Source of the DNA: Escherichia coli | GTDB taxonomy: Bacteria; Pseudomonadota; Gammaproteobacteria; Enterobacterales; Enterobacteriaceae | Assembly: GCF_045037415.1 (NCBI RefSeq) | Contig: NZ_CP173438.1 | Direction: 5' to 3' (one strand) | Length of the DNA: 64,000 nt | Part shown: piece by piece, positions 20,617-20,789 of the stretch | Numbering within the stretch: position 1 is the stretch's first letter | Layout: every line of letters begins with the position of its first letter | The notes under the pieces: model-generated | Database searches by the model: none | The model's input: only the letters and a program-made list of their open reading frames with translations | What the model was told of the DNA's origin: nothing | Position numbers and translations under genes: made by a program

Positions 20617-20789
20617 TACAAAATCAAGCGCTACCAGAGCACTTAACAAGTATAAAAATAATAAAAAAAACTACGAACATAAATGTAAAACAACCTGATG
20701 GTATTTTTTTTGACGCCGAAATACTAATACCTCTCCGACTACTAAAATTAATTCTCATTATGAAATCCTTTTAATTAATGGGGCCCCAA

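Follow-up and report, generated by a model that had tools for sequence, protein, structure and literature searches.

The window analysed here, a stretch of 64 kb, is a segment of an Escherichia coli chromosome with a prophage adjoining yecA/tyrP, in which a lambda-type Q antiterminator, lysis genes and a lambda-like head are combined with a P2-type contractile tail. Within the tail cluster, the stop of gpU (20616) and the start of gpX (20790) are separated by 173 bp (20617-20789), which the initial annotation described as an AT-rich non-coding spacer with long A/T runs. Its position and composition were given correctly: the GC content of the gap is 0.306 vs 0.498 in the whole window, equally AT-rich windows of 173 bp make up 0.97% of the 64 kb, and runs of eight A and eight T are present. 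As to its being non-coding, this is only half true, for the minus strand contains a 44-codon open reading frame (20758..20624), which we consider to be a gene fragment. Other stretches of the window that are equally AT-rich (GC <= 0.306 over 173 bp) are found at 2305-2482, 15100-15272, 25926-26191, 27880-28210, 34973-35493 and 53406-53692. The gap and its neighbors are as follows:

20188..20616, plus strand: gpU tail gene, 142 aa (Pfam PF06995 Phage_P2_GpU, E 3.1e-31; phrog_76), left border of the U|X slot
20617..20789: AT-rich fill of the slot, 173 bp, in the lowest 1% of the window by GC
20780..20787, plus strand: palindrome GGGGCCCC, GC-rich, directly before the gpX start
20790..21002, plus strand: gpX tail gene, 70 aa (Pfam PF05489 Phage_tail_X, E 1.9e-15), right border of the slot
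21006..22050, plus strand: gpD, split near 21773 by one additional A into 257 aa and 54 aa

The gpX start, the same ATG (20790) that is used by PGAP, is fixed by comparison with an allele that carries an Imm_superinfect gene in the slot (see below), because the upstream in-frame codons of this Imm-type allele contain a stop. The GGGG of the palindrome is likely to be the ribosome-binding site of gpX; in the alignment, the Imm-type allele carries GAGGCCTC where the window has GGGGCCCC. In strain SK1144, gpU is annotated as a phage tail protein and gpD is intact (347 aa); the splitting of gpD by the extra A in the window makes the tail module defective. In many ST131-type genomes two hypothetical proteins are annotated at the position of gpD. 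HCP5S3_I2 and L26 have an additional ~1 kb behind gpD, with a gene annotated as "prophage tail fiber N-terminal domain"; its absence from the window (at ~22000-22100) is a further decay of the prophage. Between gpD and the chromosomal yecA there is an ORF for a 139-aa lipoprotein (22217-22636, plus strand; phrog_890, E 2.5e-52), probably another accessory gene at the prophage end. In HCP5S3_I2, the interval from the prophage end to yecA contains a "tRNA-OTHER" of 105 nt in the PGAP annotation (L004 6742-6846), which may be a tRNA fragment of the attachment site; ARAGORN found no tRNA in positions 22000-23200 of the window.

Of 5426 complete E. coli genomes, 466 contain the U-X-D block, and many of these belong to ST131. 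The 173-bp fill is present in 434 genomes, in this context every time. The plasmid collection gave no match to the fill, and in the phage collection it matched only four records, all prophage-derived and representing the same element. In E. coli TUM2367 an IS1 copy is present (L120 1058-1755); its location in the AT-rich gap was considered and rejected, as the insertion sits inside gpX. A similarly split match, with an IS1 transposase, was observed in strain 23556.

The fill itself contains the following features:

20621..20633: putative deletion junction, 13 nt, with no counterpart in the Salmonella module described below
20624..20758, minus strand: stub ORF MRINFSSRRGISISASKKIPSGCFTFMFVVFFIIFILVKCSGSA, 44 codons and TGA, predicted N-terminal signal-anchor part of a 166-aa cargo protein
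20663-20670: run of eight A within the gap, polymorphic in length, any change of length shifting the frame of the stub ORF
20704-20711: run of eight T within the gap, likewise length-polymorphic and frame-shifting
20766..20770, minus strand: Shine-Dalgarno site AAGGA, read from the sequence, 7 nt upstream of the stub ATG at 20758
20647..20623 (whole feature 20613..20647), minus strand: terminator-like hairpin of 10 bp, including 3 G·U and 3 G-C pairs, -10 kcal/mol, followed by TTTTGTATT

The stub ORF encodes a basic N-terminus and one strongly hydrophobic segment (Kyte-Doolittle mean up to 3.2). No Pfam domain (E<=1), PHROGs or PADLOC family matched the 44-aa product, and a word-indexed search returned this locus and its frameshift variants only. 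An exhaustive phmmer search of 1.84 billion representatives was the only one to reveal its homologue, the 166-aa hypothetical protein DMA29_03150 of Salmonella enterica (P0004; E 1.1e-6, 63% identity over residues 1-43), which in turn matched this locus alone in a tblastn search of 50,697 phage records. The genes for DMA29_03150 and its 88% homologue from S. salamae (P0006) occupy the gpX-gpU interval in homologous tail clusters, read antisense to the tail genes, and start 33 nt from the X start, the stub starting 31 nt from it. They are followed by a gene for 220-236 aa, the end of which overlaps the end or the stop of U. The Salmonella slot comprises 1262 bp with a GC content of 0.33.

The relation of the stub to the Salmonella gene is also evident at the level of DNA, where 107 of 156 nucleotides are identical (score 41 vs -32 +/- 6 for shuffles, about 11 sd above them). 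The codon alignment of the two is ungapped over 44 codons, 14 of which are identical, 12 synonymous and 18 nonsynonymous, and the dN/dS ratio is 0.21-0.25, that of the intact Salmonella pair (DMA29_03150 vs its homologue) being 0.16. Such an ungapped alignment and a low dN/dS indicate that, over most of its past, the stub belonged to a coding gene under selection. Amino acid identity between the window and the Salmonella locus is 66% for U, 77% for X and 74% for D, and the stub has diverged in step with these flanking genes.

As for the intact Salmonella pair itself (L114 5001-6233 and L118 3001-4234), its products of 166 aa and 220-225 aa both carry a membrane helix at the N-terminus. Neither gave a significant match in Pfam or PADLOC, apart from one sub-threshold WCOB hit; only 2-3 homologues were found, and the AlphaFold models of both proteins are unusable (pLDDT 39.5 and 43.6). 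The pair can be regarded as a rare accessory module of prophages that is a candidate for exclusion or defence. Neither megablast nor blastn retrieved a full-length copy from the 5426 E. coli genomes, and the phage collection contains none; in IMG/VR there is one full-length copy, of the Salmonella type, and all the remaining matches are to the 43-codon stub.

The probable nature of the gap follows from the blastn comparison with the Salmonella locus. The end of U (window 20299-20620) corresponds to positions 3955-4276 of the reverse-complemented Salmonella locus (L114rc), and a second block, starting inside the gap and running through X and D (window 20634-21791), is colinear with positions 5377-6528 at 67.9% identity; about 1100 bp of the Salmonella locus between the two blocks are missing from the window. 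Homology, synteny and the endpoints of the putative deletion can all be read from these alignments. We suppose that an ancestor of the window prophage carried a two-gene antisense module, as in the prophages of Salmonella enterica and S. salamae, and that a deletion of ~1.1 kb took 123 codons from the end of the first gene together with the entire second gene. It would have left 42-43 codons with their 5' UTR and Shine-Dalgarno site, joined to the 13-nt junction, which would supply the stop codon. The direction of the event, i.e., a deletion here and not an extension in Salmonella, is derived from parsimony, as a full-length copy of the E. coli type was not found. Of the origins proposed initially for the spacer, it is thus the recombination scar that the comparison with homologous prophages supports, with about 1.1 kb lost from an antisense two-gene module that is intact in Salmonella.

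A type I-E CRISPR array of E. coli GCM39-10-2-9-3-1 (L119 701-733) contains a 32-nt spacer identical to positions 20766-20797 of the window, which covers the 5' UTR and Shine-Dalgarno site of the stub and extends 8 nt into gpX; the minus strand carries the protospacer, and its PAM is ATG (20798-20800). This spacer is specific for the 173-type fill (or for its unseen full-length parent), therefore CRISPR immunity in E. coli was at one time directed against the element. A second E. coli spacer, from strain EA2, is 100% identical over 34 nt to gpD (21099-21132).

About a dozen haplotypes of the fill, from genomes, IMG/VR and gut metagenomes, were compared. The run of eight A is shortened to seven in L005 and L109, and the run of eight T is extended to nine in L112. 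In ETEC1738 and in an independent IMG contig (L013), a run of seven T is combined with a 3-nt deletion, giving a 169-bp haplotype in which the ORF is cut to 28 aa. The Shine-Dalgarno site is mutated in L110 (G>A) and in Ecol_244 (an inserted A). Some of these frameshift variants originate from metagenome or long-read assemblies, where homopolymer errors are possible, although the 169-bp haplotype is present in two independent records. Six substitutions were counted within the E. coli stubs, two synonymous and four nonsynonymous. In most copies the stub is intact, and 430 of the 434 E. coli genomes are at least 99% identical over it; among the E. coli genomes listed, PGAP annotated nothing in the gap. 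Frameshifts at the homopolymer runs and Shine-Dalgarno mutations among E. coli copies imply that the stub is probably dead.

Between E. coli lineages the fill differs by 0-1.7%, whereas U and X differ by 5.6-8.6%. The tract of low divergence extends from ~20563/20604 to 20842 and so takes in 14-54 nt of U and 50-53 nt of X; since it includes parts of both flanking genes, the low divergence of the fill can be explained by recent recombinational spread. The deletion allele may accordingly have been spread by recombination among diverged prophage lineages of E. coli; selection on the sequence could also have kept the divergence low.

On the minus strand only, the fill shows the pattern of a rho-independent terminator, a weak stem followed by UUUUGUAUU. 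The 3' arm of this hairpin is the junction sequence, and the intact gene of Salmonella has no such hairpin, which suggests that the structure arose with the deletion, as a by-product or by a fortunate coincidence, and is not an inherited terminator. A G>A variant of L014, L018 and L104 falls in its loop.

These features could also be read as a working mini-gene, transcribed from an antisense promoter in gpX, encoding a 44-aa single-pass membrane peptide with its N-terminus inside, and terminated at the hairpin; it could possibly serve the lysogen in superinfection exclusion or act as a small toxic peptide, possibly switched by slippage at the A and T runs. The ATG, the Shine-Dalgarno site at 7 nt and the full transmembrane segment agree with such a function, as do the location of the hairpin and T-run directly after the stub stop and the rarity of ORFs of this length, which arise in only 1.6-3.9% of dinucleotide shuffles. 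Besides, the sister allele has a real antisense Imm_superinfect gene in the same place, and the sequence is almost invariant in 430 genomes. This invariance, however, is explained by clonal sampling of ST131 and by recombination. The stub makes up 26% of the 166-aa protein and lacks its entire extracytoplasmic part, no promoter scores above background, and no Pfam, PHROG or PADLOC family is hit; at least three frameshift haplotypes and two Shine-Dalgarno mutants in a small sample, together with the ratio of two synonymous to four nonsynonymous changes, also speak against this reading. We therefore consider a functional mini-gene unlikely and prefer to regard the ORF as the remnant of a deletion.

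The comparison with homologous prophages further showed that the slot between U and X is variable in itself. It had been assumed that U, X and D are tightly packed in P2-type clusters, which holds for those clusters that have the U-X-D order. Scanning of IMG/VR with a gpU alignment yielded 80 related loci: in 65 of them the genes overlap (-26 or -20 nt), in four they abut (0 nt), and in the remaining 11, all of them near relatives of the window, the distance exceeds 100 bp. Of the phages characterised so far that are nearest to the element, Chris1 and yong2 have a 26-nt U/X overlap and Valp1 a 7-nt gap. The assumption fails for phages of the P2/phiCTX type, which have no X between U and D (in phiCTX, D directly follows U). 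Thus, U and X overlap or abut in most of the relatives, and the Salmonella homologues hold an intact cargo in the slot. The other contents of the slot, arranged by the amino acid identity of gpU to that of the window, are:

gpU 96% (L26 and another 17 genomes of E. coli, plus two IMG/VR contigs): 237 bp, minus-strand Imm_superinfect gene of 80-86 aa
gpU 85% (L017/L031): 239-242 bp, diverged Imm copy
gpU ~66% (L032): 587 bp, minus-strand ORFs with no family match
gpU 63-65% (L033-L035, L037): 0 bp, empty

The antisense gene of the first of these alleles, found in the slot of 18 E. coli genomes (L26 and SE11 among the carriers), belongs to PF14373 (42.5 bits with a cutoff of 27.9, E 5.8e-11) and to phrog_1039. 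The 587-bp antisense cargo (L032 1927-2513) consists of two ORFs, one for 105 aa and one for 50 aa with a signal-peptide-like start, and neither of them has a Pfam or PHROG match. We also considered the 173-bp fill as a decayed Imm allele, which was rejected, as the alignment score of the two fills is 11-12 vs 13.2 +/- 2.1 for shuffles; all that they have in common is the GC palindrome before the X start. Since the fills differ by lineage, the slot is a site of lineage-specific cargo. All the cargoes seen in it are antisense to the tail operon and start ~2-35 nt from the X start. We conclude from these sequence comparisons that the gpU|gpX junction of this prophage family, which has a lambda-type head and Q and a P2-type tail, is apparently a hotspot for small antisense accessory ("moron") genes. 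Antisense placement within lytic genes has been described as characteristic of prophage accessory loci (PMC7067206). The existence of cargo-free and differently filled alleles suggests that the cargo of the slot is dispensable.

A stronger version of this proposal would have the junction as a dedicated plug-in site, in which a single conserved promoter, located within the 5' part of gpX and antisense to it, would drive all the cargoes, and the stub would still be expressed as a membrane micro-protein switched at the A and T runs. A candidate extended -10 element (TGaTATAAA/TGaTATAGT, 20887..20879) does exist on the minus strand inside gpX. It proves nothing, since it is conserved in all lineages, cargo-free ones included, where it encodes L-Y-Q-V of gpX. 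We regard a dedicated site of this kind as improbable.

Neither of the regulatory origins that had been suggested for the gap, an internal promoter or a small RNA, was borne out. A plus-strand promoter or other regulatory site could boost the expression of gpX and gpD or uncouple it from the upstream genes; the DNA is AT-rich and offers many -10-like hexamers, X has presumably lost its translational coupling to U, and the best candidate, TTAATT-16-TTTAAT ending at 20775, scores 6.9 bits with the position weight matrix. This score, however, does not rise above background (it is in the top 0.07% of ~1.3 million positions), and transcription would have to start inside the X ribosome-binding site. 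The consensus scan for sigma-70 sites over 1.3 kb yielded 3 sites vs 2.0 expected, none of them in the gap, and on both strands the consensus and weight-matrix scans revealed no promoter above background. Moreover, the same X and D genes are served by alleles with the Imm gene, with the 587-bp fill or with no fill at all, and the lambda-type Q antiterminator provides for a single late transcript, so that an internal late promoter is not needed. A promoter function of the gap is therefore highly improbable.

Just as improbable, in our opinion, is a non-coding antisense RNA of ~170 nt, transcribed from the minus strand and ending at the hairpin, which would regulate the tail genes or exclude related phages. 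There is a precedent in the antisense exclusion RNA STnc6030, encoded within the late genes of the Salmonella phage BTP1 (PMC7067206), and the minus-strand hairpin with its U-run and the candidate -10 element inside gpX would be suitable signals for it. Yet that candidate is also present in cargo-free relatives, homopolymer indels are tolerated in the putative transcript, and its folding (z +0.43) is no better than that of shuffles; with z -0.79 for the other strand, neither strand exceeds them. The Rfam 15 scan of the gap at E<=10 gave sub-threshold noise only, the best hits reaching 18.5 and 17.5 bits vs gathering thresholds of 43 and 66 (E > 0.4).

Altogether, we consider it probable, at roughly 80%, that the gap is a deletion scar that retains the dead front end of an antisense cargo gene at a cargo hotspot. 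The stub would now be functionless, and late transcription by the Q-modified polymerase presumably reads through it. gpX would be translated from its own GGGG site and not coupled to U as in the relatives. The AT-richness of the gap may then reflect the composition of foreign cargo, as the GC content of the intact module is 0.33. The odd gap in a prophage of ~8% of complete E. coli genomes (mostly of the ST131 type) would thus be a case of gene decay and not of regulation, and therefore needs no annotation as a regulatory element. In turn, the gpU|gpX junction is a hotspot of small cargo at which no fewer than four different antisense fills occur, including a gene for superinfection immunity, and is a convenient place to seek exclusion or defence genes, such as the 166-aa/220-aa pair of Salmonella.

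The locus resembles several known systems to a different extent. A type I toxin-antitoxin system was considered and rejected: the peptide is a fragment of a larger protein, its frame is not conserved, and no antitoxin RNA candidate was found by Rfam or by folding. The genes that flank the gap are clear Pfam members of P2-type tail clusters, for which, in Chris1 and yong2, the U-X-D order with overlaps is the norm; in the window lineage, in contrast, the U/X overlap is broken by cargo, and the element has a lambda-like head and the Q antiterminator instead of P2-type regulators. With the Imm_superinfect genes (PF14373, T4 Imm-like) of sister E. coli prophages the stub shares the slot, the orientation and the character of a small membrane protein, but there is no DNA similarity between the two fills, and the 44-aa ORF has no match to PF14373.

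The closest relative of the stub is the Salmonella module of DMA29_03150 and its 220-aa partner, to which its first 43 codons, 5' UTR, position and orientation are homologous (63% at the amino acid and 66-69% at the nucleotide level). Codons 44-166 of the first gene are missing from the window, as is all of the second; as the stub stops after codon 44 at the junction and ~1100 bp are absent, it is a fragment and not a member gene of this module. Finally, like the moron loci described for lambda (bor) and for the Salmonella prophage ST64B (STMMW_20121; PMC7067206), the fill lies between genes that are adjacent or overlapping in relatives, has a distinct GC content (0.31-0.33 vs ~0.50 in the flanks), runs opposite to the structural operon and can be exchanged among related prophages. 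As to the transcription unit of its own that is typical of morons, the minus-strand hairpin with a T-run is present, and the promoter candidate in gpX is inseparable from coding constraint. The difference from these loci is that only the truncated front end of the gene is left in the window; the feature is probably an antisense moron reduced to a pseudogene stub, a further example of a well-known kind.
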